A stretch of DNA of 64,000 nt. Source: a virus (taxonomy: Duplodnaviria; Caudoviricetes). The number at the start of each line of letters is the position of its first letter. Positions within the stretch are counted from its first letter, which is position 1. Below the pieces are notes generated by a model. The model did not search any database and was not told where the DNA came from. It saw nothing but the letters and a program-made list of their open reading frames with translations. Location: IMG/VR virus record IMGVR_UViG_3300037249_001405, positions 64,001 through 128,000 of that record. One strand, given 5' to 3'. Positions 1 to 58,105 of the stretch are shown in pieces. The position numbers and the translations under genes are program-made.

Positions 1-1265
1 GGATTTTTATCAAAATCAGGAATATCTCCGTAAACAGTTTTCTTTCCTATATGTGCGTGGGCTCTTGCTATCTCTATATCTTTTTCAGTTTTTTCAAGGT
101 TAATCACAACATTCTCAAGTGACTTCGGATCCGACATAACATATTTATTAAGTACATTCTCAGCAGCTGTATCATCGAGAACTTTCTTTAATTCTTGGAT
201 ATTTTTTGCTGTAAATCCCCAATCACTAGCAGCCTTTGGATCAGAAACAAGTTTAGCAATAGTATCTTTTATATTATCACATTTATAATAACCAGAACAT
301 TCCTGTAAGAATCTCGTAAATAATTCTTCTTTATTCTTTACGCCCAAGTTCTTTAGCGTTATATCTAATTTTTTCTTTGGATCTGTTATATTTTTAGTTT
401 CCTCTAGAATTTTAGATTTAATAGCATCTAACTTGTCAGGCGATCCTCCAGTTAATGGATAGATATGACCTAAGAATTTATCTAATCCATCCTTTTGAGA
501 TAATATATCATTTAAGAACCTTTCCTCAGCCACTTCCTGCAACTTCATATAGCGTCCCATTTCATCAAAGCTTAAAGATACTGTTTTACCTTTAAACTTA
601 AAGCTTTCTGGAACGTCTGTAGTAACAGGATCATTAGTTAAGATATCCTTTATTAAATTCTGATCTTTATATAATAAGTCTATTTTGGTATTTAAATTAG
701 AAATTTCTTCAGACAATTCATTCTCTGATACTTTTACTACTTTTTCTAGGGATTCCCTATAGTCACTGATTAATTTCATTAATTCTTTATCATTAGTCAA
801 TTTACTATTGTTATTACCTAAGAAATCTCTAGCTTTCTCTAGATTTTGCCTATAAGATTCACCCTCGTTGATTCTGTCTAGCAATTCTTTTTGCTGCTTC
901 TCGCTTAACATAGTTTCTATGTATTCCTCAAGAGCGGCTTTACTATTTTCGAAATTTTTCTTAATTCCTTTAGGGAATTCGGGTCCATCAATATATCGAT
1001 CAATAAGGTCATTCTCACTATTTCTGGCTAATTTAGTTAATCTATCCTTTTCTTCCCTACCGGTAGGAGAATGTTCAATTAACCAACCAGCGAATCTGTT
1101 ATTAGAAGGATTATCTTTATAACTACTTATATATTCATCACATTCTCTCTTTAAATCCTCCATCCATTTTGGATGATTTTTATGAGAATCGTAAGCCTTC
1201 TTAAATGATTCATACAAGCTTAATCCTTCATCTTCACTGTAATATTTAGTTCTATATAGAATCAT
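1..1265 (-). CDS. Large helical protein with N-terminal MILYRTKYYS leader (runs off window edge)
   Basis: Manually read ORF from ATG 1265, open to base 1 (MILYRTKYYSEDEGLSLYESF...); absent from ORF track because no stop in window. Confidence 0.85.
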   Translation of the reverse strand, partial: MILYRTKYYSEDEGLSLYESFKKAYDSHKNHPKWMEDLKRECDEYISSYKDNPSNNRFAGWLIEHSPTGREEKDRLTKLARNSENDLIDRYIDGPEFPKGIKKNFENSKAALEEYIETMLSEKQQKELLDRINEGESYRQNLEKARDFLGNNNSKLTNDKELMKLISDYRESLEKVVKVSENELSEEISNLNTKIDLLYKDQNLIKDILTNDPVTTDVPESFKFKGKTVSLSFDEMGRYMKLQEVAEERFLNDILSQKDGLDKFLGHIYPLTGGSPDKLDAIKSKILEETKNITDPKKKLDITLKNLGVKNKEELFTRFLQECSGYYKCDNIKDTIAKLVSDPKAASDWGFTAKNIQELKKVLDDTAAENVLNKYVMSDPKSLENVVINLEKTEKDIEIARAHAHIGKKTVYGDIPDFDKN

Positions 1266-1324
1266 TTTCTTTTAAAAAAATTAATTGTTATAACACAAAT
1301 AAGAATAATGTTATGATTATGAAG

Positions 1325-1378
1325 AAAAAAGAATAACATAAGGTTTTTTTTATTTTACCTTATGTTATTCTTTTTTTA
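1325..1378. terminator. Intrinsic terminator (bidirectional-type)
   Basis: aagaataacataagg / ccttatgttattctt inverted repeat flanked by A and T runs. Confidence 0.75.
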
Positions 1379-1939
1379 TTTATAATTGAGTAGGTTAATA
1401 TAATTAGCCTCTTCAATTGTAAAGGTCATTTCCCACTCGAAATAACCTCCTTGTATTAGAATACCATTTTCATAATATTCTACAATATACCGCTCTTTGT
1501 CGGTATTTTGAGGTACAGATAGAATAATTCCGTTAATGATATCCTTGCCTTTACCCCGAATGAGAAAAACTTTATCGCCAACATCAAATTTATTTGATAA
1601 TTCTAGTAAATAATCTTCCTCTCGCCTTATTCTTCCAGGAAATTGCTTCTTTTTACTTTTTCTTTTTTTCAGAAGGTATTTCATTTCCTGGAAAGTGTGA
1701 CTAATGTCACTAAGTTTTCTGTAACAATAAGAAAAGGAATCCCATGTTACTTCAAACCATACTGAGTCACCAAAGGTTGGATCCCCATCGGTTCTTTGAA
1801 ATATTTTCCCTTTGGGAATATATTTCGTGACGACCTCAATTGGATCGTAAAAAGATTTCATACGTCCTATCGTATAAATTTGATCACCTTCAGAGAAGGT
1901 TTTATAGGAACTGAATCTTTTTAATGTATTTTTATTCAT
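1376..1939 (-). CDS. Hypothetical protein
   Basis: 187-aa ORF in co-oriented gene run. Confidence 0.75.
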   Translation of the reverse strand: MNKNTLKRFSSYKTFSEGDQIYTIGRMKSFYDPIEVVTKYIPKGKIFQRTDGDPTFGDSVWFEVTWDSFSYCYRKLSDISHTFQEMKYLLKKRKSKKKQFPGRIRREEDYLLELSNKFDVGDKVFLIRGKGKDIINGIILSVPQNTDKERYIVEYYENGILIQGGYFEWEMTFTIEEANYINLLNYK

Positions 1940-1960
1940 TTCTTTGAATTATCTTTATAA

Positions 1961-3067
1961 TTAAAAAACCCCTTCATAAGAACTCCACGGAAGGTGGAGG
2001 GGATTAGTTATACATATGGAATTAAGAGCTTCCCTGAGTTCTTTCTTTTCCCAGATAGCTGCTTTAATTTCCGGAAGTGTTATTTCATAAGAGTCATCAA
2101 AGGATTTGTCCCCAAAATCCTTTATTAAACCGATTTTTTTATGAGACAATACACCACTGCAGAAGACAAAGCCAAGATTCTCCAACTGATGAAGAGTATC
2201 TCTACAATCATCTTCATCATCGTAAGACCAGCTTTCCTCTGGAACATCATTAAACCATGATATAATTTTATCATCATTTCTATCATTGTTTAATATTTTA
2301 GCTTCAAAAGAATCCAAATTTCTGTAAATCGGGCCTTCTTTTGTTACTATTTCTAACATAATCCAATGTGCAATCCAAGGTTGATTACAACAATTCTCAA
2401 TTATGTACTTAATCCTCTGGGCTTCTTCTTCCCACGTGGATGCCGTAGAAGGATATTCCCAATTCTTAGTACTCCATACACAATTATTCAGGTAATAAAT
2501 GTTTATTACCCACTTAGGTGAAGGCGAGTTTGCCTCGCCAGATAATGGTGGATGAAGTGAATTAGGTATATCCAAGAACATTAATGCTTCACTCATTTTA
2601 TTTTCCGGGTCGAACATAATGCTCTTTATATCAGGAAGAGTGGGCTTTTCTTCGTAAATAACCCACTCATTTTTATCATTGGAATATTCACTTGAGAGAA
2701 TGTAAAAACTATTTTTACCTTTTTCAAGTTTTATACCGAAAGGGGATAAGGTCCTAACCCAATCCTCTATAGTTAAACCAGATGGTTTATATTTCTTTAT
2801 CGCAGAAATATAACTATCATAGAACGAATCCTTTATATCATCTTCATCACTAAAGTCTGGTATTGTTTCGGAATCTGCTCTCATGTAAGTGATCCAACCG
2901 CCCTCATTTAAGATTTCAAAATAGCAATCATGTAGGTTATGCCCACATGCTTGTAGTGCCAATTGATGCTTGAATAAAGTTCTATCAGACCAGCCATGCC
3001 GAGGATGTTTTTCAGACCATACAAGGTCATTTCCAATATAAACATTTGGCTTTACATAATTACTCAT
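1961..3067 (-). CDS. Hypothetical protein
   Basis: 368-aa ORF, start overlaps upstream stop. Confidence 0.85.
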   Translation of the reverse strand: MSNYVKPNVYIGNDLVWSEKHPRHGWSDRTLFKHQLALQACGHNLHDCYFEILNEGGWITYMRADSETIPDFSDEDDIKDSFYDSYISAIKKYKPSGLTIEDWVRTLSPFGIKLEKGKNSFYILSSEYSNDKNEWVIYEEKPTLPDIKSIMFDPENKMSEALMFLDIPNSLHPPLSGEANSPSPKWVINIYYLNNCVWSTKNWEYPSTASTWEEEAQRIKYIIENCCNQPWIAHWIMLEIVTKEGPIYRNLDSFEAKILNNDRNDDKIISWFNDVPEESWSYDDEDDCRDTLHQLENLGFVFCSGVLSHKKIGLIKDFGDKSFDDSYEITLPEIKAAIWEKKELREALNSICITNPLHLPWSSYEGVF

Positions 3068-4482: not shown

Positions 4483-4504
4483 AATAATATTTATATTTAA
4501 TGTT

Positions 4505-4578: not shown

Positions 4579-4585
4579 CAAGGAA

Positions 4586-7559: not shown

Positions 7560-9608
7560 CTACTTTAAGCCTTTAATAAAATATCCTAATTCTCTTTTCT
7601 TTGTTACGGGATTGGTTAATCGTTGATTATCTACAGCAAAATAATTCTGTATATCAGCAGCTTTTGGTGCTGAGTTATAACCAACCCTCTGATAAATGTT
7701 TCTTAACTTTTCCTTTATTGAGGATAGTGTATAGAAAGTGTTTAATTGGAATTCTTTTTGAATCTCTGTTTTAACATCACCCGATTCAATCATTCTTATT
7801 TTATTAAGTTCATCCATTAATAAACCTTTCTGATAACCGAGGGATTTTATTTTATCGATTCCCAATCTATTCAAACAATTTCTATACTCAACAGGAACAA
7901 AACTTATAAAGTAACTATTGTACTTCTGATAAATTGATGGCTCTCTCGTGATAAACTCATAGAATAATTTCATTCTTCTGACAAAATTACCATCCTGTTC
8001 AAATTCCTCTTTGAATCTGGAAATTGCTTCTACATCTGAAGTTACTTCTATGGGAATGTTTAATGGATCTGGTCCAATTTTTCTTATAAAAACATTCTCC
8101 TGATAATCAGGTCTTGTTATCTCCCAAGCTCGTAACTCAGATAATCTCACTAAAACATTTTCCACAACAGAATTAGATTTTTTAGAGAATGAAGCATAAT
8201 CGTTTTTATACCTCTTGCTTTTAGTCCATGTTAGCATAAATTCCGAAGCTAATGTTGGATCTATCTTATTAAAATTTTCTATAATCTTTTGAGTCTGTGC
8301 CCGCATTGATTTTACATGTTCATCAAAACTTGCTTGATCCATATAAAATCCATCAGATCTTTTATGATAGAAAAACATTATCTCGTTTCTAAAAACATTT
8401 TCTGGTGATCTTTGCCTACCAATAATTTGTGGAAGATCTAATGAAATATCTACAGTTAATGATTGTTTATTTAAATCAGAAAATATAAAAGTCATAGCAT
8501 TATCAGAATAAAAGTCTGCACCTATATAAGAAGTTCTTGTACAGAATGTAAACATTTTATTTTGTGACTTATCAATAGGAACAGTACCTATTGAATAACC
8601 AATCTTCTTTAATCTTTTCTTATTAAATTCACTATTAGCACAGAGAATATTAACTTTATCTGGACTTAGTTTAGTTTTCTTTAATACATCACATATTACA
8701 TTTACTGAATTAACAAAGAAAACCGCTTCTTTGGACACATGTTCTACTCCATCTAAAGTTACTTTTGTTGGGAAAATATTATTTATATAGTTATTTATTA
8801 TATTAATAATATCTCCTCTTATAGATTCCGTTAGTCTTCTCGTTAAATTAACAGGTTCTATTAAGGATTTATCCCAGATTAGTTTATATATAGTCATATC
8901 TTTAAAAAAATCCAATTTATCCAAATATCTCTCCATCATAGGAGTAGCTGATATGAACAAGAATTTATTTAAAGGTAGACTACTCATTACTTCCAATACA
9001 CTTAGTTCTACTTCCGGTTTGAATGTACTATCAGTAAAAATAGACTGAAATTCATCCACAACTATAGTAAATCTTGATATATCAACTCCTAAAGCATCTA
9101 CAACATGCTTAAAAGAATCATAAGTTACTATAATTTTAGGTACAAAATTGGGATCATTGGAATTAATTGATAACCATTGTCTTAAATCAGATTTTAATTG
9201 GAAGAGATAAATAGGTAATGATGACTTTTTATCCTTTATAACTAACTGTTTATTAGATACTAACTCTTTTTCTAATTCAATAAAACTTAAATTAGTTTCT
9301 TCTTCCTGAGTTATTTTAAGAGTAGTATCAGGTTCTTCATCATAACCTAAACATACTTCCTTTTCATTCTTAAAATAAAATAATGGTCTACCTCTCTGCG
9401 AGAGGTTGTGTTGATCTGCTTTATTATCCAATAATACTCTTCTTGGACTTAATAGTATTATTGGTTCATTATTGTTTAAACAGAATTCTGTCAAACCACA
9501 ACCACATACTGTTTTATCAATAATACAACTTATGGTTGGTAAGTTAAATCCTACCCAATCACTAATGAATTTTGTTCCTTGCGGAACGTTTACTTCTATT
9601 ACTTTCAT
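7560..9608 (-). CDS. SF2 (DExD/H-like) helicase / origin-binding-like protein
   Basis: Walker A variant KTVCGCGLT, TYDS, VVDEFQ (motif II), ISATP (motif III), QIIGRQR (motif VI). Confidence 0.8.
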   Translation of the reverse strand: MKVIEVNVPQGTKFISDWVGFNLPTISCIIDKTVCGCGLTEFCLNNNEPIILLSPRRVLLDNKADQHNLSQRGRPLFYFKNEKEVCLGYDEEPDTTLKITQEEETNLSFIELEKELVSNKQLVIKDKKSSLPIYLFQLKSDLRQWLSINSNDPNFVPKIIVTYDSFKHVVDALGVDISRFTIVVDEFQSIFTDSTFKPEVELSVLEVMSSLPLNKFLFISATPMMERYLDKLDFFKDMTIYKLIWDKSLIEPVNLTRRLTESIRGDIINIINNYINNIFPTKVTLDGVEHVSKEAVFFVNSVNVICDVLKKTKLSPDKVNILCANSEFNKKRLKKIGYSIGTVPIDKSQNKMFTFCTRTSYIGADFYSDNAMTFIFSDLNKQSLTVDISLDLPQIIGRQRSPENVFRNEIMFFYHKRSDGFYMDQASFDEHVKSMRAQTQKIIENFNKIDPTLASEFMLTWTKSKRYKNDYASFSKKSNSVVENVLVRLSELRAWEITRPDYQENVFIRKIGPDPLNIPIEVTSDVEAISRFKEEFEQDGNFVRRMKLFYEFITREPSIYQKYNSYFISFVPVEYRNCLNRLGIDKIKSLGYQKGLLMDELNKIRMIESGDVKTEIQKEFQLNTFYTLSSIKEKLRNIYQRVGYNSAPKAADIQNYFAVDNQRLTNPVTKKRELGYFIKGLK

Positions 9609-23020: not shown

Positions 23021-23101
23021 GCGGGTGTGACGGAATTGGTAGACGTAGCACGTTTAGAGCGTGCCGCCAAAAGCGTGGGGGTTCGAGTCCCTTCACCCGT
23101 A
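23021..23101 (+). tRNA. trnL: tRNA-Leu(TAG)
   Basis: Cloverleaf, anticodon arm GCACG-TTTAGAG-CGTGC, long variable arm. Confidence 0.95.
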
Positions 23102-23226
23102 CGATGAGCCGACGGTATTCCGGCCAGGATGTTATCGAATAAGTCAAATTTCCCTTGATACCAGGGTGACATATTGGAAAGACAATAAAAAGCTGGGATG
23201 GCGGAACTGGTCGACGCGGCGGACTT

Positions 23227-23979
23227 AGTTCAACTCCGTTTTACAATTTTTTGGAACATAATTCTTTACTGTGATATTAATTTAAAAAGAAATCACATGA
23301 AAAAGAAGAATTATACTGACGAAGAATTTGTGGAAGCGGTACAAAAATCCAAATCATATTCTGGTGTTTGTAAATTTATAGGTCTATCTCCTAAAGGAGG
23401 TAACTTAAGAACTGTAAAGAACAAAATTCAGATAATGGGTTTGGATACAAGTCATTTTACTTTTGGTAGGTGGAATAAAGGATTAACAAGTGAGGATCAT
23501 AGCTCAATAAAGAAAAAACCTTTAAACGAGATTTTTAAAGAGAATTCTGGATGGAGTTCTCATAATATTAGATTGAAGCTATTCAGAGAGAAACTAAAAG
23601 AAGAGAAGTGTGAACAATGCGGTAGAACCGAATGGAATGGAGAAAAGATTCCACTAGAGTTACACCATATAAATGGTATTCATACTGATAATCAATTAAG
23701 TAATCTCAAAATCCTTTGTCCGAATTGCCATGCTCTTCTTGGATTTGACACCAAGTTTGGTAAATATAAAGTAAAAGAACGAGGTTTGAGTGCACCTGTG
23801 GTAACACAGGATGTAGAAGTGGGCTAATTCGGTGAAGGTGACGGCCTTTAAACGTCAATAACGCCGAGCTAAGTCGATGTATTTTATACATCGTAAATGT
23901 GTAGAGACTATACACCCACCACCCTACTTCTTTCAAGAAGGGGTGAAGACATAGTCCAAGCGGAAAAGATTTCCGTATG
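23227..23979 (+). mobile_element. Group I intron (IC3-like) in tRNA-Leu(UAA) anticodon
   Basis: Exon ends in U, intron ends in G; IGS TTTGAG; P3 GTGGG/CCCAC, P4 TTCGGTG/CGCCGAG, P7 GACTA/TAGTC in GTAGAGACTA and GAAGACATAGTCC. Confidence 0.92.
23297..23827 (+). CDS. Intron-encoded HNH homing endonuclease
   Basis: CEQCG...LELHHING...DNQLSNLKILCPNCH; true start MKKKNY at 23297. Confidence 0.92.
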   Translation: MKKKNYTDEEFVEAVQKSKSYSGVCKFIGLSPKGGNLRTVKNKIQIMGLDTSHFTFGRWNKGLTSEDHSSIKKKPLNEIFKENSGWSSHNIRLKLFREKLKEEKCEQCGRTEWNGEKIPLELHHINGIHTDNQLSNLKILCPNCHALLGFDTKFGKYKVKERGLSAPVVTQDVEVG

Positions 23980-24048
23980 AAAATCCGCTGGGCAGTAATG
24001 CCCTTGGGGGTTCGAATCCCCCTCCCAGTACCCAGGTGCGAATACTAA

Positions 24049-24222
24049 GATGACTCCCAGACGTTTGGGTCATCGGATGAGTCGGCAGAGATATGGCGCC
24101 GTATCTCGACTCTTATGGGCAACCCCCCGACTGTACCACATGCCGAGTAGGTACATCGCTACTATTTGCTTTAGTCTGGAAGTGGGTAGTAGTTCCTAGC
24201 GGGAAAAGATAAAATAGCTAGG
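24049..24222 (+). ncRNA. Putative structured RNA in tRNA spacer
   Basis: GC-rich tandem hairpins GATGAC/GTCATC, GAGTCG/CGACTC, TGTACC/GGTACA, CCTAGC/GCTAGG; no ORF. Confidence 0.5.
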
Positions 24223-24235
24223 ATTTTTTTTTAAC

Positions 24236-24309
24236 GGTGCGTTAGTTCAGCTGGCTAGAATGCCTGCCTGTCACGCAGGAGGTCACGGGTTCGATCCCCG
24301 TACGTACCG
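24236..24309 (+). tRNA. trnD: tRNA-Asp(GTC)
   Basis: CCTGC-CTGTCAC-GCAGG anticodon arm. Confidence 0.95.
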
Positions 24310-24316
24310 CTATTTT

Positions 24317-24390
24317 GGGGACATAACTCAGTGGTCCAGAGTGCCTCCCTTACAAGGAGGAAGTCGGTGGTTCGACTCCACCTGTCCCCA
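24317..24390 (+). tRNA. trnV: tRNA-Val(TAC)
   Basis: CCTCC-CTTACAA-GGAGG. Confidence 0.95.
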
Positions 24391-24408
24391 CAAAATTCTC
24401 TCTCACCT

Positions 24409-24541
24409 AGGTGGTTGGCGTAATCGGTAGCCGCGCGGGGCCAACATCTCTCTGAGATCTGAACTCTGTGCCCTCGTCCTCCTTTCAGGCGACTGAATTT
24501 AGGGTAAGTAGGGCGTACAGGTTCGAATCCTGAACTGCCTA
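24409..24541 (+). ncRNA. tRNA-like RNA with expanded anticodon and variable arms
   Basis: Acceptor AGGTGGT/ACTGCCT, D arm, T arm CAGG-TTCGAAT-CCTG, ~80-nt structured middle without 7-nt anticodon loop. Confidence 0.7.
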
Positions 24542-24677
24542 GCGGAGAATTTTTTTTAAGAAATAAGAATAACTAATCAAATACGATTAGTTATTTTTTT
24601 TTTATTTCTTTCAAGTATTTCAGGAGTTCCCTTGAAATTCTAAATAATGATTAATAATAATTAAAAATAATATTAAT

Positions 24678-24872
24678 ATGGACGAATTTGTAATAGTAAC
24701 ATGGTCTGATAACATTCAGTTCTTCCTGGAACAGGAAGGTTTTAAAGAAAATGCCTATCTAATTAATGATGAGAAAGGTCTCGATGACTTTGGTTCAAGT
24801 GCTTACTTTGTAAGAAAAAGTTGGTATTTAGAAAACGAACCAAAACTATTAAAGGCACCAGAAGGATTGTAA
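24678..24872 (+). CDS. Small hypothetical protein
   Basis: 64 aa after promoter motif at ~24635. Confidence 0.7.
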   Translation: MDEFVIVTWSDNIQFFLEQEGFKENAYLINDEKGLDDFGSSAYFVRKSWYLENEPKLLKAPEGL

Positions 24873-24888
24873 AATAATAAACAAGAAA

Positions 24889-25419
24889 ATGACAGTATTA
24901 ACTAGTTTATATCACGTATCCTTGTATATTCTTAATCACAGTCCATACGGCAAAAATGAGCCAATGGAATTAGGATTGTTTTCAAGAATATTATTCGATG
25001 CTAATGCATCACAGATATACTCATATGCTTCTGTAATCATCAAAGATTACTGGGAAATTAATGAAGAGAAGGATATGATATTTCCTAAATCTTTTGAAAA
25101 GATGATCTCTTCCGATAAGTATAAAATATGGATAGAAGGGGATAAAATCCGTACCGATCAGGATGCCAACCTAGATTATTTATCAGAAATAACTAAAGAA
25201 ACTCTTGATAATCATCTAAGACTTCCTGCTGGATGTAGTTGGACTATCGAAACTTGGTATAGAGTTAAAATGAGTCCATCTTTTAAAAATTCTAATATAT
25301 TTGAGGATAAAAAGAAAATAACCCCTCCAAATATTTTGGAGTATGTTTATAATAATGTTAAATCTTGCGTAGAGGAACAGTTTTTCCTCGACCAATCATG
25401 TGGTAATTATTATAATTAA
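24889..25419 (+). CDS. Hypothetical protein
   Basis: 176-aa ORF. Confidence 0.75.
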   Translation: MTVLTSLYHVSLYILNHSPYGKNEPMELGLFSRILFDANASQIYSYASVIIKDYWEINEEKDMIFPKSFEKMISSDKYKIWIEGDKIRTDQDANLDYLSEITKETLDNHLRLPAGCSWTIETWYRVKMSPSFKNSNIFEDKKKITPPNILEYVYNNVKSCVEEQFFLDQSCGNYYN

Positions 25420-25433
25420 TAATACAAATAAAA

Positions 25434-25835
25434 ATGACACAGGAAGAAAAGGAATTACTCTTAAAAGACCTTTGTGCAAGATTGCCTTATGGGGTTATAC
25501 TTGACATTGATACGACAGATTGGAAAGCACCACAAGGTCATATAAAAGTAAAAATTGAAGGTGTTGGCATACTATACAGTGATCTGTCTCTAACTGTTAA
25601 TGGCTCCTATTATGGCAACAAATATAAGCCGTATCTTCGTTCAATGGCGAGTATGACCGAAGAAGAGTACAAAGAATATATGAGTATAGATAATAGAGCT
25701 TATTCTTGTCCGATAGATTATGCACATATTCCTGCTCAAGAGAGAATAGATTGGCTCAATGCTCATCACTTCGATTTTAGGGGTCTCATTGAGAGGAACT
25801 TGGCCTTAGAAGCACCAGAAGGTATGTACAATTAA
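25434..25835 (+). CDS. Conserved Bacteroidales-phage-type hypothetical protein
   Basis: LLLKDLCARLPYGV...KPYLRSM...DWLNAHHFDFRGLIE..LALEAPEGMY. Confidence 0.8.
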   Translation: MTQEEKELLLKDLCARLPYGVILDIDTTDWKAPQGHIKVKIEGVGILYSDLSLTVNGSYYGNKYKPYLRSMASMTEEEYKEYMSIDNRAYSCPIDYAHIPAQERIDWLNAHHFDFRGLIERNLALEAPEGMYN

Positions 25836-25847
25836 AAACTAAATAAT

Positions 25848-26231
25848 ATGGAAATTACTGAAGATTACGTAAGTTTTGAAATAGCAAAACTTCTTAAAGA
25901 AAAAGGATTTGATATAAGATGTAATACGTACTACATATCAGATAATGAGATTGCAGCATTACCTATTACAAGAGATTTTAATAATCACGGTATTTACTTA
26001 TCCGCTCCAACTCTTCAAATGGTAATGAAGTGGTTGAGGGAAGTTCATGGATTATTTATATCCATTGATAATGATGACCTTGGCTATAATTGGCAAATAA
26101 TGAATGTCGATATTAGGTCAGATAACGGTGATCCTACTTATCTGACAGATTCCTATGCTGGTTATAAATCTTATGAAGATACTGTAGAAGCAGCACTTAA
26201 ATATTCTCTTTCAGAAAAAATTAATCTATGA
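25848..26231 (+). CDS. Conserved Bacteroidales-phage-type hypothetical protein
   Basis: [17 protein letters not shown]...[16 protein letters not shown]. Confidence 0.8.
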
Positions 26232-26584
26232 ACTACAAAGAATTAATAGAGTTAATTGATAATCAACATTTCACTGATTGCGGTGAAGCTAAAGATTACA
26301 TACTTAGTAATAAATATGCTGAACCGTATTCACCAAAATTTAATCCTTTCGGAAGTTATTACTTTACATTTGATGGGGTTAACTTGGTATTGTTAAAAGA
26401 ATCTGGTCAGGTTAAACTAGCTAAAGTAATTGCCTTGAGTGAGATCAAGAAGTTACGTGAGGTTACTGGGCGTGGAATGATGGACTGTAAAAAAGCATTA
26501 GTTAAATCGGATGGAGATTTCGACGAAGCCATCAAAATTCTTGAAACGATACCTAAAATACTCATATATAGAGTGAATGAATAG
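26228..26584 (+). CDS. Protein with EF-Ts N-terminal (UBA-like) domain
   Basis: [33 protein letters not shown] matches the EF-Ts N-domain signature. Confidence 0.85.
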
Positions 26585-26683
26585 GAAGAATAAAATAATT
26601 AACTAGTAATATATTAAATTTACTGGTTAATTATTTTTTTTTTCTTACAAAAATCTTGATAATAGATTAAAATGTAGATAATT

Positions 26684-27595
26684 ATGATATTATATAGAAC
26701 AAAAAATTATGGAGTAGCGGATAGCGTTCGAAAGGCAAAGGGTGAATATTTAGATAAACTCTTTAAGGAAGCAAAGGAGAGGATAAAAGATACTGAATTA
26801 GCAAAAAAGAGATTAAGGGATAAAGAGGAATGGAAGAAGTGTTTAAATAATGAACGAAGAGATATTGATAAACACTACAAATCGGTTATTGATGATTCTT
26901 TAGAAGGTTTAGACTTTAGTGTGGTAAAGCGTAATATAGAAAAAGAGTCACATCAACCTTCAGATGAAGTAATATCAAGGATTTATGACAAGTATAAAAA
27001 TAAAGCTGATAATTTAGGTATTGATATCGTTATTGATTCGAACTTTAAGAGTTCTGGTAGGTATGATCCAGAACTAAAACAAATTATTCTAAAGAATCCA
27101 AAATCACTCACACTCATTCACGAATTAGAGCATGCGATTCAAGATAGAAATGAGAAAAAGTTTAGATATCTTCCAGGATTTGGTACTGGAATTGCTAAAA
27201 AAGATTACATGAGGCTTTATAATGGCAGGGAAAATGTTCATAAATATATCAAGTCTGTAGCATCAGAAGATGGAGCTATTATTGCGAAAACTAAAAAACT
27301 TTATTTAGAACCAGATGTCCCAGTTGATTATGTATTTGCTCAACACAACACTCCTTATATGCAACACATGAGAGCCCCGTTAGGTGATACAAACTTAATG
27401 AAGAATTATGCTGATATTTACTACAAGAACTGGATTGATCCTGAATTATATGGCAAAATAAAAGAGAATGCTAAAAAGATAGGTATTGATCTAGAAAAGA
27501 AGAGTAAAGTAGATAGAACACCAGGAACACCAGATGTAATAGAGAGAGTAAAAGAGTGGAATCTTGAAAAATTTGGTCATTCAAATATAAATTAG
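26684..27595 (+). CDS. HExxH metallopeptidase-like protein with MILYRTKNYG leader
   Basis: SGRYDPELKQIIL...TLIHELEHAIQD. Confidence 0.75.
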   Translation: MILYRTKNYGVADSVRKAKGEYLDKLFKEAKERIKDTELAKKRLRDKEEWKKCLNNERRDIDKHYKSVIDDSLEGLDFSVVKRNIEKESHQPSDEVISRIYDKYKNKADNLGIDIVIDSNFKSSGRYDPELKQIILKNPKSLTLIHELEHAIQDRNEKKFRYLPGFGTGIAKKDYMRLYNGRENVHKYIKSVASEDGAIIAKTKKLYLEPDVPVDYVFAQHNTPYMQHMRAPLGDTNLMKNYADIYYKNWIDPELYGKIKENAKKIGIDLEKKSKVDRTPGTPDVIERVKEWNLEKFGHSNIN

Positions 27596-27658
27596 GAAGA
27601 AATTTCCCCTCAAAATTCTTAGTATTGATTAAGAGGTTGTCGAATCGTAAGTCGACAC

Positions 27659-27731
27659 ACAGGAGTAGTTCAGTTGGTAGAACGCTAGTCTCCAAAACTA
27701 GTGGTCGGTGGTTCGAGTCCATCTTCCTGTG
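27659..27731 (+). tRNA. trnW: tRNA-Trp(CCA)
   Basis: CTAGT-CTCCAAA-ACTAG. Confidence 0.95.
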
Positions 27732-27898
27732 CTTTTTGATGATGGATATGTTCCGTTTGATAAAAAGATGCTAGGGTTGGGTTTTTGGGTGAGTCTTTCC
27801 CTCTTCGATGACATAGATCTAGAACGTTGATAAAATTGAAAGACAAACCAGACTGCAGAGACGAGTTCTGTTGGCGCTCAGGAAAGTACTGGGGAAAT

Positions 27899-27972
27899 GC
27901 GGGAGTAGCTCAATTGGCTAGAGTATCTGCCTTCCAAGCAGAGGGTTGCGGGTTCGAAACCCGTCTCCCGCT
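27899..27972 (+). tRNA. trnG: tRNA-Gly(TCC)
   Basis: TCTGC-CTTCCAA-GCAGA. Confidence 0.95.
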
Positions 27973-28022
27973 CTTTTTTACTATTAATTATTAATTATTA
28001 ACTATTAATTTAAAAACACATT

Positions 28023-28274
28023 ATGACATCAGCTATAGCTTTCATTATGGGGATTTTCCTCATATGGTATGTAACAGACTCGATGAAAGAGACTAAGAAT
28101 CTCTATGAGATTCTTCTTTCGACAGAAAAGAATGAAGAGGTAAAGAGCCAACTAAAGGATCTTTATGAGAAATCAAAGAGAACTAATAAGAAGTATTTGA
28201 TTATTTTCGCTATTCTTCTTGCTATTTCTGTTGCTGTTTCCGTTACTGATTTAATTGCAATAATCAGCAAATAA
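28023..28274 (+). CDS. Small two-TM membrane protein
   Basis: Hydrophobic N- and C-terminal helices. Confidence 0.75.
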   Translation: MTSAIAFIMGIFLIWYVTDSMKETKNLYEILLSTEKNEEVKSQLKDLYEKSKRTNKKYLIIFAILLAISVAVSVTDLIAIISK

Positions 28275-28333
28275 TGTTATATGGTGGGTGGGGAAACCTG
28301 CTCACCATTTTTATTTCATCAAATTAATTAATT

Positions 28334-28660
28334 ATGAACTATAAAGAGAATGATGAGAAAAGACGATATTATGAAGATTTGCTAAGAAAGCGTATTGATA
28401 TCGTTCAAAGAAGAAAGATTGGGCTTATGGATCTTGTTGACCGACTTCAAAAAGAGGCTGGAATAACGAGAGGAGATGCTCTTGTACATGAAGTTTATAA
28501 AGGAACAGATAAAATTTGGGATAAATTATCTGAAAAATCCTTAGAAAAGTTCCTTCAATATCAAGAAGCTTTAATAGATCTCGAAAATGAGACTAATAAA
28601 CTCAACAAATTAAACGAAATATTAAATAATCTTCTTGAAGAAAGAAATACAAATGACTAA
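28334..28660 (+). CDS. Hypothetical coiled-coil protein
   Basis: 108-aa ORF. Confidence 0.75.
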   Translation: MNYKENDEKRRYYEDLLRKRIDIVQRRKIGLMDLVDRLQKEAGITRGDALVHEVYKGTDKIWDKLSEKSLEKFLQYQEALIDLENETNKLNKLNEILNNLLEERNTND

Positions 28661-29556: not shown

Positions 29557-29595
29557 TCTAATCATTTCTAGATCATATTAACGATTTCTGTTAAT

Positions 29596-29667
29596 TGACC
29601 TGTGGTGTAACGGTTAGCACCCGAGATTTTGGTTCTCGTAGTGGGGGTTCGAATCCCTCCAGGTCAA
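29596..29667 (+). tRNA. trnQ: tRNA-Gln(TTG)
   Basis: CGAGA-TTTTGGT-TCTCG. Confidence 0.95.
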
Positions 29668-29679
29668 CGCTTACCGTGA

Positions 29680-29828
29680 GGCTGCGTAGCGCAATTTGGA
29701 TTAGCTTGAGGGATAAAAGTTAATCTGGAGGCCTCCAAACGAATGGTATAGTGGATGCTATACCGCCTGCTAGTATGAAGTAGGTTGTAGTCATCAGTCC
29801 CAAGAATCCGAGATCATACTATCGGGTT
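29680..29828 (+). ncRNA. Putative multibranch RNA with loop-loop complementarity
   Basis: Closing GGCTGCG/TGTAGTC, three internal hairpins, loop AGTATGA complementary to TCATACT in downstream hairpin loop. Confidence 0.6.
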
Positions 29829-29842
29829 CATTTAAAATATAA

Positions 29843-29916
29843 TCTGTTATAGCTCAGTGGATAGAGCGACTCTCAATTACTGAGAGAAGACGTGGACTCA
29901 ATCTCCTCTAACAGAA
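29843..29916 (+). pseudogene. Degenerate tRNA-like element (nominal anticodon TTA)
   Basis: Acceptor TCTGTTA/TAACAGA and canonical D arm, but non-canonical anticodon loop (AATTACT) and T loop (CTCAATC). Confidence 0.6.
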
Positions 29917-29926
29917 CAAATAAATT

Positions 29927-30000
29927 GCCGATGTAGCTCAGCTGGCCAGAGCGGCTGATTTGTAATCAGCGGGTCGTGGGTTCGAATCCCTCCGTCGGCT
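29927..30000 (+). tRNA. trnT: tRNA-Thr(TGT)
   Basis: GCTGA-TTTGTAA-TCAGC. Confidence 0.95.
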
Positions 30001-30041
30001 CTTTCAATACATTTTTTAACAATTAATAAAAACATATACAT

Positions 30042-30116
30042 GACAGGGTGGCTGAGAGGCCCAAAGCAACGGTCTGCAAAACCGTACAACCGTGGGTTCG
30101 AATCCCACCCCTGTCT
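30042..30116 (+). tRNA. trnC: tRNA-Cys(GCA)
   Basis: ACGGT-CTGCAAA-ACCGT. Confidence 0.95.
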
Positions 30117-30124
30117 CATTTATA

Positions 30125-30337
30125 AATCACTACAAGTGGGTTTGTCATACCCTGCAATTATCTCTTCCCTAATAAGCCAGTTCTCAAATTCTAGAAAAGT
30201 ATGCTAGCGCATACATCGGGCTATGGGGGAGTCTTCTCATAAGCTAAATAGAAACTGCAGAAATTCTATTTAGTGAAACAGGAGAACAGTAAGGTCATAG
30301 GTAAAGAGAATACAGTATGATCTAAGAAGTAGTGATT
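30125..30337 (+). ncRNA. Putative ~210-nt rod-shaped structured RNA
   Basis: Nested pairs AATCACTAC/GTAGTGATT, TCATAC/GTATGA, TCTCTT/AAGAGA, GTTCTC/GAGAAC ending in three hairpins. Confidence 0.6.
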
Positions 30338-30354
30338 TTTTAGGAAATAAAAAC

Positions 30355-30428
<74 letters not shown>

Positions 30429-30441
30429 CGAATATTAAAAC

Positions 30442-30515
30442 GGGAATGTAGCTCAGTTGGTTAGAGCAATTGACTGTTAATCAATAGGCCGTGGGTTCGA
30501 ATCCCTCCTTTCCCG
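30442..30515 (+). tRNA. trnN: tRNA-Asn(GTT)
   Basis: ATTGA-CTGTTAA-TCAAT. Confidence 0.93.
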
Positions 30516-30549
30516 CAAAATTCTAATTTATAAAGGTGAAGCTCTTAAT

Positions 30550-30634
30550 GGGGAAGCGGCTACGATGGTGGAGTGGCGGCGGTCTGTAAAACCGTTACAT
30601 TGATACGCAGTAGGTTCGAATCCTACCTTCCCCA
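30550..30634 (+). tRNA. trnY: tRNA-Tyr(GTA)
   Basis: GCGGT-CTGTAAA-ACCGT, long variable arm. Confidence 0.93.
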
Positions 30635-30671
30635 CACATAATGTGTGATTTGTTTTATAATTTTTTGGTAA

Positions 30672-30744
30672 GCGCCAGTAACTCAGTTGGCTAGAGTACG
30701 AACTTTTAATATCGGAGTCCCGAGTTCGAATCTCGGCTGGCGCA
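30672..30744 (+). tRNA. trnK: tRNA-Lys(TTT), irregular anticodon stem
   Basis: Loop CTTTTAA; stem CGAA/TATCG pairs only with a bulge. Confidence 0.85.
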
Positions 30745-30761
30745 CTTTTTTATTTATTTTT

Positions 30762-30849
30762 GGAGGGTTGGCAGAGTGGACGAATGCAGCGGTTTGCTAA
30801 ACCGTCGACCGCGAAGAGCGGTCCACAGGTTCGAATCCTGTACCCTCCG
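30762..30849 (+). tRNA. trnS: tRNA-Ser(GCT)
   Basis: GCGGT-TTGCTAA-ACCGT, long variable arm. Confidence 0.95.
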
Positions 30850-30880
30850 CAAAAATTAATTAACTAAAAACACAAACAAA

Positions 30881-31075
30881 ATGACACAGGAAGAAAAATT
30901 GTTACTTGCTCTCTTGGGCGCTATGGCTCCCAAGAAGAAAACATTTTTCGACCACGTAGATACTGTGGTCGATAAGTGCGAGAATGCTATAACTAGCATT
31001 CCAGACAAATGCTCAAATGTAGCAGACAAGATCGAAGATACGGTAGATGATATCGTAGACTTCTTCACAATTTAG
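30881..31075 (+). CDS. Small acidic protein within tRNA cluster
   Basis: 64 aa, A-rich leader, repeated DK motif. Confidence 0.6.
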   Translation: MTQEEKLLLALLGAMAPKKKTFFDHVDTVVDKCENAITSIPDKCSNVADKIEDTVDDIVDFFTI

Positions 31076-31088
31076 GCACATCTTTACA

Positions 31089-31161
31089 GGGCCCGTACCT
31101 CAATGGTCAGAGGGACTGACTCATAATCAGGCGGCTACAGGTTCAAGTCCTGTCGGGCCCA
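31089..31161 (+). tRNA. tRNA(CAT), probably Ile2
   Basis: GGGCCCG acceptor, ACTGA-CTCATAA-TCAG typical of Ile2-type CAT tRNAs. Confidence 0.85.
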
Positions 31162-31167
31162 CAAAAG

Positions 31168-31277
31168 ACACACTTGTTGATGCGTAATCCGAAAGGAGAT
31201 AAACATCCGGGGGTTCGAATCCCTCTCCTGCCTGAATGGGCAGGTTGGCAGAGCGGTTGATTGCAATGCAGGTGTGT
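31168..31277 (+). ncRNA. Circularly permuted tRNA-Ser-like RNA (YrlA/Y-RNA-like topology)
   Basis: Order: variable arm, T arm GGGGG-TTCGAAT-CCCTC, acceptor closed by loop CCTGCCT-GAAT-GGGCAGG, D arm, terminal stem ACACACTTG/CAGGTGTGT. Confidence 0.8.
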
Positions 31278-31298
31278 ATTTTTCAATGAAATTTTAAA

Positions 31299-31379
31299 GT
31301 GTATACAAGAGACGCAGGAGTTGTAACCCACCCGATAGCCTGGGTAGCTCAGATTTCATTAAAGAGCGCTTGTATATGC
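31299..31379 (+). ncRNA. Second, more degenerate permuted tRNA-like RNA
   Basis: 11-bp terminal stem GTGTATACAAG/CTTGTATATGC, closed hairpin ACCCG/TGGGT, then AGCTC...GAGCG D arm. Confidence 0.55.
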
Positions 31380-31502
31380 GTATGTAAGGAGTAATATGTT
31401 CTCTAGCGGAAGGCAAAGGCGATGATGGGGCTATTATGGAATCACCTTACTAAAAATATTTTAGGTTATTTGGACCAAGAAACCACCTTTCTTGGTCAAT
31501 TT

Positions 31503-31576
31503 GGGTCCGGTAGCTCAGCTGGTAGAGCGTCTGATTGAAGATCAGAAGGTCACTGGTTCAAATCCAGTCCGACCCA
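31503..31576 (+). tRNA. trnF: tRNA-Phe(GAA), acceptor stem with one bulge
   Basis: TCTGA-TTGAAGA-TCAGA. Confidence 0.88.
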
Positions 31577-31662
31577 CTTTTCGTTTTATACTACTAGGTT
31601 ATATAGTTTGTCAGGATTGGGGGACTATATGTAATTACTTCTCCGGAGAGTCCCTAGTAATT

Positions 31663-31735
31663 GGGGAGGTAGCACTGGTGGTCAGTGCACTGGACTGAAA
31701 ATCCAGCCAAGAAGGTTCGACTCCTTCCCTTCCCA
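31663..31735 (+). tRNA. trnF: tRNA-Phe(GAA)
   Basis: CTGGA-CTGAAAA-TCCAG. Confidence 0.93.
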
Positions 31736-31854
31736 CAATTAATTACTAATCATTAATGATTAGTAATTTTTTTTTGCTCATGAAATATGTTGTTATGAAA
31801 ATAAAAACCTAAATAAGTGATTAAATTTTACTCACATTAGTGAATAAGATTACT

Positions 31855-32121
31855 ATGAATGAAATTAATAATTAGATTACAAAAGCCGGTAAAATTCTTA
31901 CGAAAGATGAAATAGTATTATTTTTCGTTGGTTATATCGTCTTGAATTATATTAAAGATAGAGGGATTAACGTAATGGAAACTATAGCTTTATATTTTAA
32001 AGCAATTAAATCTGTCTTTGAAGAAGGAGGACTGAATGCTTGGTTATTACTGATATTCTTTGGATTAGTAATAGGCCTTGCTGTTTGGTTTTTAATTTGG
32101 CTCTTCTTTAAGAAAGATTAA
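31855..32121 (+). pseudogene. Membrane-protein ORF interrupted by in-frame TAG at codon 7
   Basis: MNEINN*ITKAGKILTKDEIVLFFVGYIVL...LAVWFLIWLFFKKD*; promoter motif at ~31804. Confidence 0.5.
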
Positions 32122-32322
32122 AGATAAACAAATACTTGATAGCCCGAGGAAGTCTGGGAATTCGGGGTAATAGAGCAGTCAAGTGGAATGACATAGTGAC
32201 TAAATTGAAGTGCCAGTTTTTAGAATTGGATATACCAGATGATAGCGAAGGTCACTCGATTCTTGAATAAATTATCAAGTATTAGTTTTTTAAATAAAAC
32301 ACACTATAAAATTAAAATAATT

Positions 32323-32502
32323 ATGGTATATACATCGGTATATCAAGCCTCTCAAAATCTAAACAATGTAATAAAAGATATTTTGAGCAGCGGTTACCCT
32401 ATCTATCTCACTGTAAATGGGAATGAGGTAACTTTAAACAATAAAAATACAAAAATAGAGGTCGGAAGTGAAGAAGACCTTGAAATTAACATAAAAGAGT
32501 AA
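32323..32502 (+). CDS. Small hypothetical protein
   Basis: Start adjusted to MVYTSV. Confidence 0.6.
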   Translation: MVYTSVYQASQNLNNVIKDILSSGYPIYLTVNGNEVTLNNKNTKIEVGSEEDLEINIKE

Positions 32503-32515
32503 AAAAAAATACAAT

Positions 32516-33226
32516 GACGTGCTGGTAAGGGAAAGATCTAAAAAATCCAACCCCAAATACGGCATCTTGAATTAACGGAATGTGGGTACGGCCTGGCGTA
32601 GGCTCCTTTATAAAAGCTGTACACTAAGACCTGACGGGGTAACTAATAAATCAAATATATGTAGACTTATCTCTCACACCTAGTGCAGGGTAGCGTGAGA
32701 ACTTATCTAGTCTCCGTGAGAATGTAAGTCCCAGCCCTACACTGGAGTGGAGCTGTTCTATAACCCGGGTTATAGGTGATATTACTAATCACGTAAGTTG
32801 ATTTTTTATTATTTCGGAGATCTCAATAAATTTATGACTAAATATAATCTCGAAAGGGTTTCCAACAATCTCAAAAAAGATTGTAAGTGAATAAAAGGCG
32901 ATGTCGGTTGTAATTAATCATGCCGAGATACCCCATTTTGAATCCAGGAGAATAAGAGATTGTATTGTATTGATCATAATAAGTTCAGTAGAGTCTATAA
33001 AGCTCGAGATTACTTGCTGATTATTGAGATTCGTGTCTATTTCGCTTACTCGTGTAGTTAGTGAAAGTCACTTATTCAGTAAAAGTGTCGGGTGGCTATC
33101 ACGGTAAATAACAGGTCCTAAATGGAATGTCTGATACCGATAAAAAATAAAGGAAAGTTATTTGCGCGATTACCCCTTTATTTGGTAGTCCCTGTATTTG
33201 GTGCTAATAACACATATCAGCATGTC
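32516..33226 (+). ncRNA. Large (~710 nt) structured ncRNA of uncertain class
   Basis: ORF-free; 12-bp terminal helix GACGTGCTGGTA/TATCAGCATGTC, further long-range helices; abuts tRNA-Arg. Confidence 0.75.
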
Positions 33227-33244
33227 TGCGTATTTATTATAAAA

Positions 33245-33318
33245 GGTCCCTTAGCTCAGCTGGATAGAGCAACAGCCTTCTAAGCTGTGGGTCGAAGGTT
33301 CGAATCCTTCAGGGATCA
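33245..33318 (+). tRNA. trnR: tRNA-Arg(TCT)
   Basis: ACAGC-CTTCTAA-GCTGT. Confidence 0.95.
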
Positions 33319-33398
33319 CTAGGATTGTCATTTTTTGCTAGAAGCATGAATCATTTTTGTCATGCTTCTAGTTTTTATTTTTACACACAATTAATATT

Positions 33399-54590: not shown

Positions 54591-54610
54591 AATGTATAGT
54601 TTTTTAAGTG

Positions 54611-55752: not shown

Positions 55753-55770
55753 TTTTTGTAGTTTTATAAT

Positions 55771-55844
55771 TAATTAATATCTAGAAAAATAAAATGAAGA
55801 GAATATAATAAATTATTTATATTCTCTCCTATATTTAGGATTTT
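55771..55844 (-). promoter_or_regulatory. Promoter-hairpin-U-tract leader, copy 7
   Basis: AAAATCCTAAATATAG; GAGAGAATATAA/TTATATTCTCTT; ATTTTATTTTTCTAGATATTAAT. Confidence 0.8.
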
Positions 55845-55857
55845 AAGGGAGCAAAAA

Positions 55858-56662: not shown

Positions 56663-56797
56663 ATTTTTTGTAGTTTTATTTTTTTATTCTCTTTTAAGAA
56701 ATATAGGCCTTTTGAACCGACCTTTTTTCTTTTCAAGAAAAAGAAAACCCACTCGTCTCTGCGCTAACAGACTACGAGTGGGAAAAACTACTTCGTG

Positions 56798-56870
<73 letters not shown>

Positions 56871-56898
56871 ATATTTATTTTTTTTTTTATTTCTTTAG

Positions 56899-56971
56899 TC
56901 GGGGTGGCCAGGCTCGAACTGACGACCTCAGCGTCCCAAACGCCGCGCGCTACCAACTGCGCTACACCCCG
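56899..56971 (-). tRNA. trnP: tRNA-Pro(TGG)
   Basis: CGGCG-TTTGGGA-CGCTG. Confidence 0.95.
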
Positions 56972-57005
56972 AAATAAATATTTATTAAATAGTTTTCTTT
57001 ATTGT

Positions 57006-57022
57006 GTCGTATATAAGGATTT
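57006..57022 (-). promoter_or_regulatory. Promoter motif for tRNA-Pro/tRNA-Met/GOLLD unit
   Basis: CCAAAATCCTTATATACGA. Confidence 0.6.
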
Positions 57023-57079
57023 TGGTCCTTTTTAACCTCCCTATTTTTATTTTTGATAAAATAAAAAAAGAAGAAGATT

Positions 57080-58105
57080 TTACTCTCCTTCTTTATAATT
57101 CAAAAATTTATTTCTTTCTTCTCTTCTTCTTTCGTTTTCTTCCTTTATTCTATCGCCCTTTCTCTTAGCTCTTAATCCACTAGCTAAATATCCGAAACCG
57201 CTAGCTGCTGTATTAGCTGCTATATCCAGATTTCTATTGCTAGCATAAGTATTATAAGCAGCCTTTAAAGATTCCTTGCCTTGTTTCAAATATTTATCAC
57301 TAGCTCCAAGACCTTTCAACAATTTCATAGCTTCTTTTGAAGCTACTTTTTCATGATGAGTTCTTACAAAAGGTAATGCTATACCGAGAGCAGGTGCTAT
57401 TAAACTAGCCTTTCTTAATTTAACATCACCAGTATCTTCATCTACTTTAAATCCAGTAGCACCTGTAGCAACGCCAGGTATCATATGCATTCCAACTCTA
57501 GCTGCTATTTTTCCTGTTGAATCTTTCCCATCTCTACCTACCCTAAAAATATCTTTATGACCTGCCCTTTGAGTAATTTTAGGAAGTAATCCTGCTCTAT
57601 CTTTTTCTATGTTATAATGACCGAATTCATGGGCAACAACAGCGGCTGATGCATTTCTGCCTTCAGCAATCTTATATGGTTTTCCTCCAAATTTTTCCTG
57701 TTTGTAATCATCTATTGCTTTCTTTATATAATTTTCTGGAGGATTATCTATACCTGATTTTTTACATTCATTAATCAGGTGCTCTCTTAACTCCTTTTCA
57801 TTAAACCTACTAAAAACGGATTGATCACTATTTAGTCTACGAGTATGATGGAGTTCATCTATGGAATTTATTTTATCATTTAATTTCTCCCATAATTTTC
57901 TATCCTCTGGGGATTTTCTTAGATCAGTGTCTAATTTTGTAATCTTTTCTACTAACTTTTTATTTCTTGATCTATCAAATGTATCGGCTGCAAGGGCAGC
58001 ACTACCAGCTCCAAGTCCAGATAGACCATAAGTTAGTGTATTAGAACCTAAATCACTCTTCTTTTTATCCTCATCAGAATAATATCTTGTTAATCTAAAT
58101 ATCAT
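57080..58105 (-). CDS. HExxH metallopeptidase-like protein with MIFRLTRYYS leader
   Basis: VVAHEFGH, downstream HHEKVASKEA; glycine-rich hydrophobic segments. Confidence 0.8.
   Translation of the reverse strand: MIFRLTRYYSDEDKKKSDLGSNTLTYGLSGLGAGSAALAADTFDRSRNKKLVEKITKLDTDLRKSPEDRKLWEKLNDKINSIDELHHTRRLNSDQSVFSRFNEKELREHLINECKKSGIDNPPENYIKKAIDDYKQEKFGGKPYKIAEGRNASAAVVAHEFGHYNIEKDRAGLLPKITQRAGHKDIFRVGRDGKDSTGKIAARVGMHMIPGVATGATGFKVDEDTGDVKLRKASLIAPALGIALPFVRTHHEKVASKEAMKLLKGLGASDKYLKQGKESLKAAYNTYASNRNLDIAANTAASGFGYLASGLRAKRKGDRIKEENERRREERNKFLNYKEGE

Follow-up and report, generated by a model that had tools for sequence, protein, structure and literature searches.

We analysed a 64,000-nucleotide (nt) stretch of DNA, hereafter the window, which spans bases 64001-128000 of the 210,316-bp IMG/VR virus record IMGVR_UViG_3300037249_001405 (genome coordinates below are those of the record), and focused on three dispersed genes whose products open with a common N-terminal peptide, the leader. 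The source is an uncultured, T4-related jumbo phage from metagenomes. The contig has a GC content of 33.8%, and its CheckV completeness of 56% implies a genome of about 375 kb. A blastn search of the region against 50,697 phage records gave matches confined to tRNA genes, indicating no close cultured relative in that set. Cargo 1, the open reading frame (ORF) 1265(-), encodes 619 residues at genome 63406-65265 (-), of which 3..1265 lie in the window, the gene running off it, 594 nt before its start; cargo 2, ORF 26684(+), encodes a 303-residue protein with a zincin-like core at 26684..27595 (+); and cargo 3, ORF 58105(-), encodes a 341-residue protein with a putative zincin domain at 57080..58105 (-). 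The translations begin MILYRTKYY↓S, MILYRTKNY↓G and MIFRLTRYY↓S, respectively, as an earlier sequence-only reading had described, where the arrow marks the predicted cut and the residue before it is P1. The codons for leader residues 1-9 occupy 1239..1265 (-) in cargo 1, where the predicted cut follows Y9 and the peptide is invariant in homologues, and, as judged from translation and homologue alignment, 26684..26710 (+) in cargo 2 and 58079..58105 (-) in cargo 3. Each of the three ATGs is the first start following an in-frame stop.

A scan of the whole 210-kb contig with the N-terminal pattern put forward in the sequence-only reading matched, among real genes, just these three. The leaders of cargos 1 and 2 are identical at seven of the nine residues after Met, which ties for the top among 25,878 gene pairs; the other pair at 7/9 likewise consists of two leader-bearing genes, and control 9-mers from protein interiors never exceeded 6/9. 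At the DNA level, the similarity between cargo 1 and cargo 2 ends after about the first 30 nt of coding sequence, and four of the eight identical leader residues of the aligned pair are encoded by different synonymous codons, which argues that conservation acts on the peptide and not on a DNA or RNA element. Beyond the leader, the three products had been considered dissimilar. This is accurate for cargo 1 against the other two, its likeness to cargo 3 being restricted to the 11-residue leader in a profile-profile comparison, but not for cargos 2 and 3, which share a remotely homologous zincin core (hhalign 92.9%, E 3.6e-7).

Each gene had also been placed behind a terminator, with a promoter-like motif of its own. 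Hairpins with U-tracts are indeed present 40-60 nt upstream of each ATG, with z values of -2.5, -7.1 and -2.8 for the three regions on direct folding. They lie at 1336..1365 (-), about 60 nt before the cargo 1 ATG; at 26592..26637 (+), where a strong hairpin with an 18-bp stem and a U-run (z -7.1) ends about 45 nt before the cargo 2 ATG; and at 58153..58189 (-), about 45 nt before the cargo 3 ATG. For cargos 1 and 2, the hairpin directly follows the stop of the upstream ORF. A consensus terminator scan around 26684 missed the AT-rich hairpin there, and direct folding was used in its place. The promoter part of the claim did not hold up as well: TATAAT-like (-10-like) boxes between the U-run and the ATG are candidates spotted by eye only, and a sigma-70 promoter scan around 26684, one of the three regions, returned a count not above that of shuffled sequences.

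A large set of tagged genes and the head module

Expressed as [KR]-x-[FY]↓[SGTA] with the aromatic P1 at residue 7-13, the leader motif heads 26 of the 228 called genes, against about 5 expected (binomial p 1.6e-12, a somewhat optimistic value for a reason given below). At control positions, the rate was 2.0% (windows inside proteins) or 2.7% (following an internal Met); the motif is thus commoner at N-termini than chance, a point on which the earlier proposal had been made to depend. The leaders are 7-13 residues long and consist of Met, a hydrophobic or basic stretch and [KR]-x-[FY], followed by S, G, A or T, as in MKLLRTKLF↓G, MKLYRTKLF↓T, MIILRTKHF↓G, MYVRRKVF↓S, MAIFRQKIF↓T and MARYRLKRKTF↓G. 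Of these 26 hits, two or three are probably false positives, one example being an ORF that overlaps tRNA genes, and several near-misses fall outside the regular expression (MIVYITKYF↓N, MIFYKQKVY↓C and MIIYRTNLY↓G); with both groups taken into account, the tagged set likely totals about 25-30 proteins. Eighteen of the 26 genes cluster at genome 28-66 kb, directly before the window, in a stretch that includes the genes for the candidate protease, scaffold and capsid protein.

The same motif recurs within the products of this head module. The scaffold, a very acidic 813-residue protein whose gene (genome 42569-45010) adjoins the capsid gene, carries 17 copies where about 2.7 are expected (Poisson p 4e-9), and an adjacent Zn-ribbon protein carries six. 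In the 442-residue protease candidate (genome 45954-47282), four copies are present, all in a linker (residues 207-288) past the catalytic domain. The 504-residue capsid protein candidate (genome 41034-42548) has two, AKMF↓S at 39 and QKTF↓SGYAETPLL at 63; T4 gp23, for comparison, loses 65 residues.

Searching IMG/VR with the capsid protein recovered at least 80 loci at 59-79% identity, on contigs of up to 401 kb, and 12 diverse relatives were taken for the conservation comparison. Both capsid sites are invariant in these relatives; conservation is high beyond the second site, whereas a variable stretch separates the two. The four sites in the protease linker are likewise invariant, forming islands of [RK]-x-[FY] followed by S or T in a linker that is otherwise unalignable. 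Scaffold orthologues keep 11-19 motif sites, and many ORFs in the head modules of the relatives begin with the same type of leader, MIKFRQKEF↓S or similar.

The identities of the head proteins were approached through language-model features, remote homology and gene context. In the ESM Atlas, the 504-residue protein groups with Gp23 major capsid proteins (0.98; 229/256 features shared) and the 442-residue protein with Peptidase_S77/S80 prohead proteases (0.91-0.94). With its C-terminus, the capsid candidate hits a coliphage protein annotated as a capsid protein (2e-4), and the hhalign match of the candidate to T4 gp23 is weak (E 0.017 over 45 columns). A profile of 11 protease orthologues gave a weak hhalign match to T4 gp21 (E 0.006), in which the invariant H49 and S142 stand opposite H85 and S140 of gp21, reportedly its catalytic pair (Cheng et al. 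2004), although the residue numbers found no confirmation in the literature searched. The equivalent triad in SPN3US gp245 is H77-S153-D178 (PMC5694885). Furthermore, the genes for the protease, a core protein, the scaffold and the capsid protein are arranged in the order of T4 genes 21-22-23. Pfam and PHROGs searches with ten large head-module proteins yielded nothing useful. For the protease and capsid candidates, neither PDB sequence searches (with single sequences or 11-sequence profiles) nor Pfam scans of each family member turned up a meaningful match. Profile searches of the contig for S77 (PF03420), S78 (PF04586) and Prp (PF04327) proteases produced no candidates.

Within the window, the tagged set also includes the gene adjoining cargo 1, which encodes 187 residues at 1376..1939 (-) and bears a double-motif leader, MNKNTLKRF↓SSYKTF↓S. 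In many tagged proteins, either the leader is immediately followed by a Gly/Ala-rich hydrophobic stretch or a glycine zipper is present (Pfam Gly-zipper_OmpA, E 4e-7), examples being L003:5432-5917 (-) and the head-module genes at genome 35862 and 37591; these features suggest membrane-active ejection proteins.

The three cargo proteins and their relatives

Cargo 1 is a long helical protein with a glycine-zipper-like hydrophobic segment, a probable anchor, near residues 460-480, and a weak DUF883_C match is found in seven of the nine members of its family. Across nine homologues at 44-95% identity, the leader MILYR-x-KYY↓[SA] is unchanged. A second motif, KFY↓S, occurs at residue 501 and is followed by a 118-residue extension (genome 63406-63759) that has its own hydrophobic segment and is absent from all eight homologues; these end ...WKNKFE, whereas cargo 1 itself reads ...WKNKFY↓S and goes on. 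The extension thus looks like a second module fused exactly at a copy of the cleavage motif.

Cargos 2 and 3 carry the HExxH motifs that had been assigned to them, IHELEH at residues 145-150 and AHEFGH at residues 158-163, respectively, and their signatures and profile similarity point to zincins that are remote homologues with a homologous catalytic core. Eleven sequences of the cargo 2 family, at about 35-93% identity, keep the leader, H146-E147-x-x-H150 and E195. The AlphaFold2 (AF2) model of cargo 2 is poor, with a predicted local distance difference test score (pLDDT) of 48; its better core, residues 95-160, comprises three strands followed by the HExxH helix. An internal [KR]-N-Y↓[AG] at residue 242 (residues 241-242 at window 27406-27411) is nearly invariant in the family and could be a second processing site that parts the zincin domain from a conserved 60-residue C-terminal part. 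We also noted a third tagged HExxH protein outside the window (MIIYRTNLY↓G, HEAGH; genome 155347-156174 (-)), a distant paralogue of cargo 2 whose leader is hidden in the crude gene call by an in-frame GTG further upstream.

Cargo 3 consists of the leader, an acidic/basic spacer, a Gly/Ala-rich hydrophobic segment, the putative zincin domain, long C-terminal helices and a basic tail. An exhaustive HMMER search recovered 31 relatives at 17-95% identity, nearly all of which open with the same type of leader (for example, MILRKVRYF↓S, MIILRHRLF↓S or MKLYRQILF↓S), and H159, E160, G162, H163 and E252 are invariant in the 31 sequences. Eighteen of these relatives match Pfam Zn_peptidase_2 (PF04298; best E 4.4e-7); cargo 3 itself scores 16 bits against this family, under the cut-off of 27, and Pfam and PHROGs searches with cargos 1-3 returned nothing above cut-off. 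The AF2 model of cargo 3 has a pLDDT of 75.8, with residues 1-37 disordered, and its fold neighbours include weak zincin matches amid helical noise; a BFVD fold search with the model gave one uncharacterised match only. No relatives were found when IMG/VR was searched for related loci with cargo 2 or cargo 3 alone as query, and a tblastn search with cargo 3 found no match in cultured phages. In one metagenomic cargo 3 homologue, P0025, the nine-residue leader is replaced by a different, longer tag, ...IYSKAFEEGVNYAIQKMF↓G, which ends ...QKMF↓G and has two motif copies inside; the same tag also heads three small genes in the present phage (genome 35059, 48941 and 62885). The two tag types, the nine-residue leader and that of P0025, therefore appear to be interchangeable.

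Other features of the window were recorded as well. Nineteen tRNA genes are predicted, 17 of them in an array at 23021-33319 (+) and two, for Met and Pro, shortly past the 3' end of cargo 3 at 56797-56971 (-). ARAGORN called the tRNA at 30672-30745 with a four-base anticodon, 'ttta', and assigned it no amino acid; possible identities are a tRNA-Lys whose loop is unusual and a tRNA resembling frameshift suppressors. Two large paralogous ORFs, at window 7560-9608 (-) and genome 177628-179574 (+), have N-termini that resemble each other (MKVIEVNVPQGTKFISDWVGFNLP and MNKTILDVPAGVRYISDWVDFDLP).

Proposed function of the leader and competing explanations

In the reading that we favour, with a probability of roughly 0.6, the leader is a tag that directs a protein into the capsid and is afterwards cleaved off by the gp21-type protease which the phage itself encodes, much like the capsid-targeting sequence (CTS) of T4. 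According to this model, the leader would bring a protein into the assembling prohead core, where the gp21-type serine protease would then remove it by cutting after the aromatic residue; through the same motif, the enzyme would dice the scaffold, trim the capsid protein and process itself. Cargos 1-3 would be dispersed, separately transcribed members of the set, one of them helical and anchored by a glycine zipper and two of them remotely related HExxH zincins, and the trimmed cargos would stay in the head and leave it with the DNA. We infer cleavage, prohead incorporation, ejection and peptidase activity from motif statistics, conservation, head-module context and zincin signatures, and the protease is predicted to have a new specificity, with an aromatic P1 in place of Glu. 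A packaging/processing signal is what the sequence-only reading had proposed, and every sequence-level prediction of it that we examined held in silico; what did not stand is its confinement to three proteins, since the signal extends to about 25-30. The role of injected protease effectors, also suggested there, is one that the tagged zincins may have.

Further observations bear on whether the leader targets proteins or merely marks a cut. Unlike the scaffold, cargos 1-3 carry at most one further copy of the motif and so would yield large mature proteins, as expected of cargo. A zymogen inhibitor would be unlikely to take the form of a nine-residue peptide that stands at one and the same N-terminal place in some 25 unrelated folds, which argues for targeting and not for cleavage alone. 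The modularity of the tag, which is swapped on one cargo 3 homologue and recurs at the fusion joint of cargo 1, argues in the same direction.

Several considerations weigh against this model. The argument for targeting, unlike that for cleavage, draws on just two features, the constant place of the motif at the N-termini of unrelated proteins and the modularity of the tag, and the exact scissile bond is placed by analogy (P3-x-P1). The protease and capsid assignments, which combine language-model features and gene context with a weak hhalign match, are well motivated yet weakly supported and not firm. To our knowledge, there is no precedent for an aromatic P1 in the S77/S80 family. The phage is known only from metagenomes, and the case for the tag is statistical and comparative. 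Moreover, the regular expression was derived from N-termini and later broadened, which renders the N-terminal p value somewhat optimistic; the enrichment in scaffold, capsid protein and protease and the conservation across genomes constitute the more independent tests.

The alternatives differ in which of these steps they dispute. Packaging and trimming would both be retained if the cargos were assembly or core proteins, or ejection proteins forming a conduit, and not catalytic effectors, their HExxH being structural or acting inside the head. The glycine-zipper segments, which favour a role at the membrane, lend this some credit, and we rate it as possible but rather improbable: HExxH and the downstream Glu are invariant down to 17% identity, which argues for a working metal site, and 18 of the 31 cargo 3 relatives match Zn_peptidase_2. 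A membrane role and catalysis are, in any case, not mutually exclusive. Cleavage without packaging, by contrast, would follow if the leader were a processing signal for another protease, such as a host Prp-like enzyme, and not a packaging tag for the phage head protease. An aromatic P1 is not known from gp21-type enzymes, and the leader does resemble those of L27 and 80alpha, which are short, hydrophobic or basic, N-terminal and cleaved between Phe and a small residue (PMC5744158); this type of cut makes Prp the nearest rival. We nevertheless consider a Prp-like enzyme unlikely. PF04327 (Prp) has no match in the contig, although this contig is only 56% complete and the search covered phage DNA only. 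Prp substrates are cut once, N-terminally, whereas here there are 17 internal copies in the scaffold and four in the protease linker, a pattern of prohead-protease dicing and autoprocessing rather than of Prp (PMC5694885).

A leader that is never cut could instead be a strand by which the N-terminus docks onto a chaperone, a scaffold or a membrane, or it could act in translation initiation, with the internal copies having another cause. The 80alpha scaffold offers a parallel, as its N-terminus is needed for assembly while its cleavage is dispensable (PMC5744158). Against this, a feature acting on RNA or DNA is ruled out by the synonymous codon differences and by conservation across very divergent homologues, and, short of proteolysis, there is no easy explanation for a motif that is invariant among relatives precisely at the boundary of the capsid propeptide and in the linker of the protease; we therefore hold an uncleaved leader to be very unlikely. 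Least credible of all, to the point of being negligible, is a chance likeness of three AT-rich N-termini. Low-GC genomes do favour codons for I, L, Y, K, N and R, but the 7/9 identity that ties for the top of 25,878 pairs (controls at most 6), the enrichment of the motif at N-termini and the retention of the leader in all homologue families refute it.

If the leader is indeed a load-and-trim tag, the motif would be a sequence rule that predicts, directly from genomes, which proteins are packaged, and probably injected, by a large clade of uncultured jumbo phages, the one represented by the IMG/VR loci above. An assemblin fold of the herpesvirus/T4 type would be able to switch its P1 from Glu to Phe or Tyr, with dozens of substrates following, and the tagged zincins and glycine-zipper proteins would become candidate early-acting factors of host takeover or anti-defence. 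Like the T4 CTS, a nine-residue tag of this kind might also be put to use for bringing foreign proteins into large capsids. More speculatively, and with considerable doubt as to the scenario as a whole, a clade of roughly 350-400-kb gut/rumen jumbo phages may have re-tuned its gp21-type protease from Glu-P1 to aromatic-P1 and co-evolved a portable nine-residue tag that loads some 30 cargos, among them three zincins with ArdC/IrrE-like cores that would be injected to cleave host defence or envelope proteins.

Comparison with known systems

Among the closest known systems is the CTS of T4 (Mullaney and Black 1996; reviewed in PMC3012670 and PMC5694885). CTS peptides, 10-20 residues in length, direct the internal proteins IPI, IPII and IPIII as well as Alt, gp67 and gp68 into the core, and the prohead protease gp21 takes them off (PMC5694885, PMC3012670). 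In both systems, a short N-terminal peptide sits on otherwise unrelated proteins and ends in a motif shared with the capsid propeptide and, in many copies, with the scaffold; a gene for a gp21-type protease, a candidate one here, lies just upstream of the scaffold and capsid genes; and the cargo is diverse, that of T4 including enzymes such as Alt. The T4-like CTS claim of the sequence-only reading thus stands as far as a short leader ending in a head-substrate motif is concerned, but the motif itself is [KR]-x-[FY]↓[SGTA] and not the [LI]-x-E of T4. Further differences are the number of tagged proteins (about 25-30 compared with about 6), the position of several tagged genes far from the head module behind hairpin/U-tract units of their own, and a cargo that includes three zincin-like and several glycine-zipper proteins; the system described here is, in addition, known from sequence alone.

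The phages phiKZ, 201phi2-1 and SPN3US, with the S80 protease gp175/gp245, are likewise jumbo phages with many internal head proteins that are processed (PMC10052503, PMC5694885). The SPN3US protease cuts at A-x-E, with Ser favoured at P1' (PMC10052503). Shared with the present system, for which they are predicted, are autocleavage of the C-terminal part of the protease (PMC10052503), propeptides with multiple sites and the preference for Ser at P1'. In contrast, the motif in these phages is [A/S/G]-x-E and most propeptides span 111-254 residues, whereas P1 is aromatic here and the leaders, at 7-13 residues, are of T4-like length. The leaders processed by Prp, on L27 and on the capsid and scaffold proteins of 80alpha, are also short, cut after Phe before a small residue and common to non-homologous proteins (PMC5744158); they differ in being cut once, N-terminally, by a host cysteine protease, while the present contig has no Prp match and its motif is repeated in scaffold and protease.

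The HExxH cargos resemble zincins of the PF04298 Zn_peptidase_2 type (YugP-like putative neutral zinc metallopeptidases) and, more loosely, of the ImmA/IrrE, ArdC and SprT types in their HExxH, downstream Glu and flanking hydrophobic helices, and the top structural neighbours of both are ArdC and metalloprotease domains of the PprI/IrrE type. What appears specific to this phage is that an aromatic-P1 motif goes together with a gp21-like protease, that so many proteins are tagged and that three of these are zincins. Overall, the tag system would represent a scaled-up analogue of the T4 CTS.

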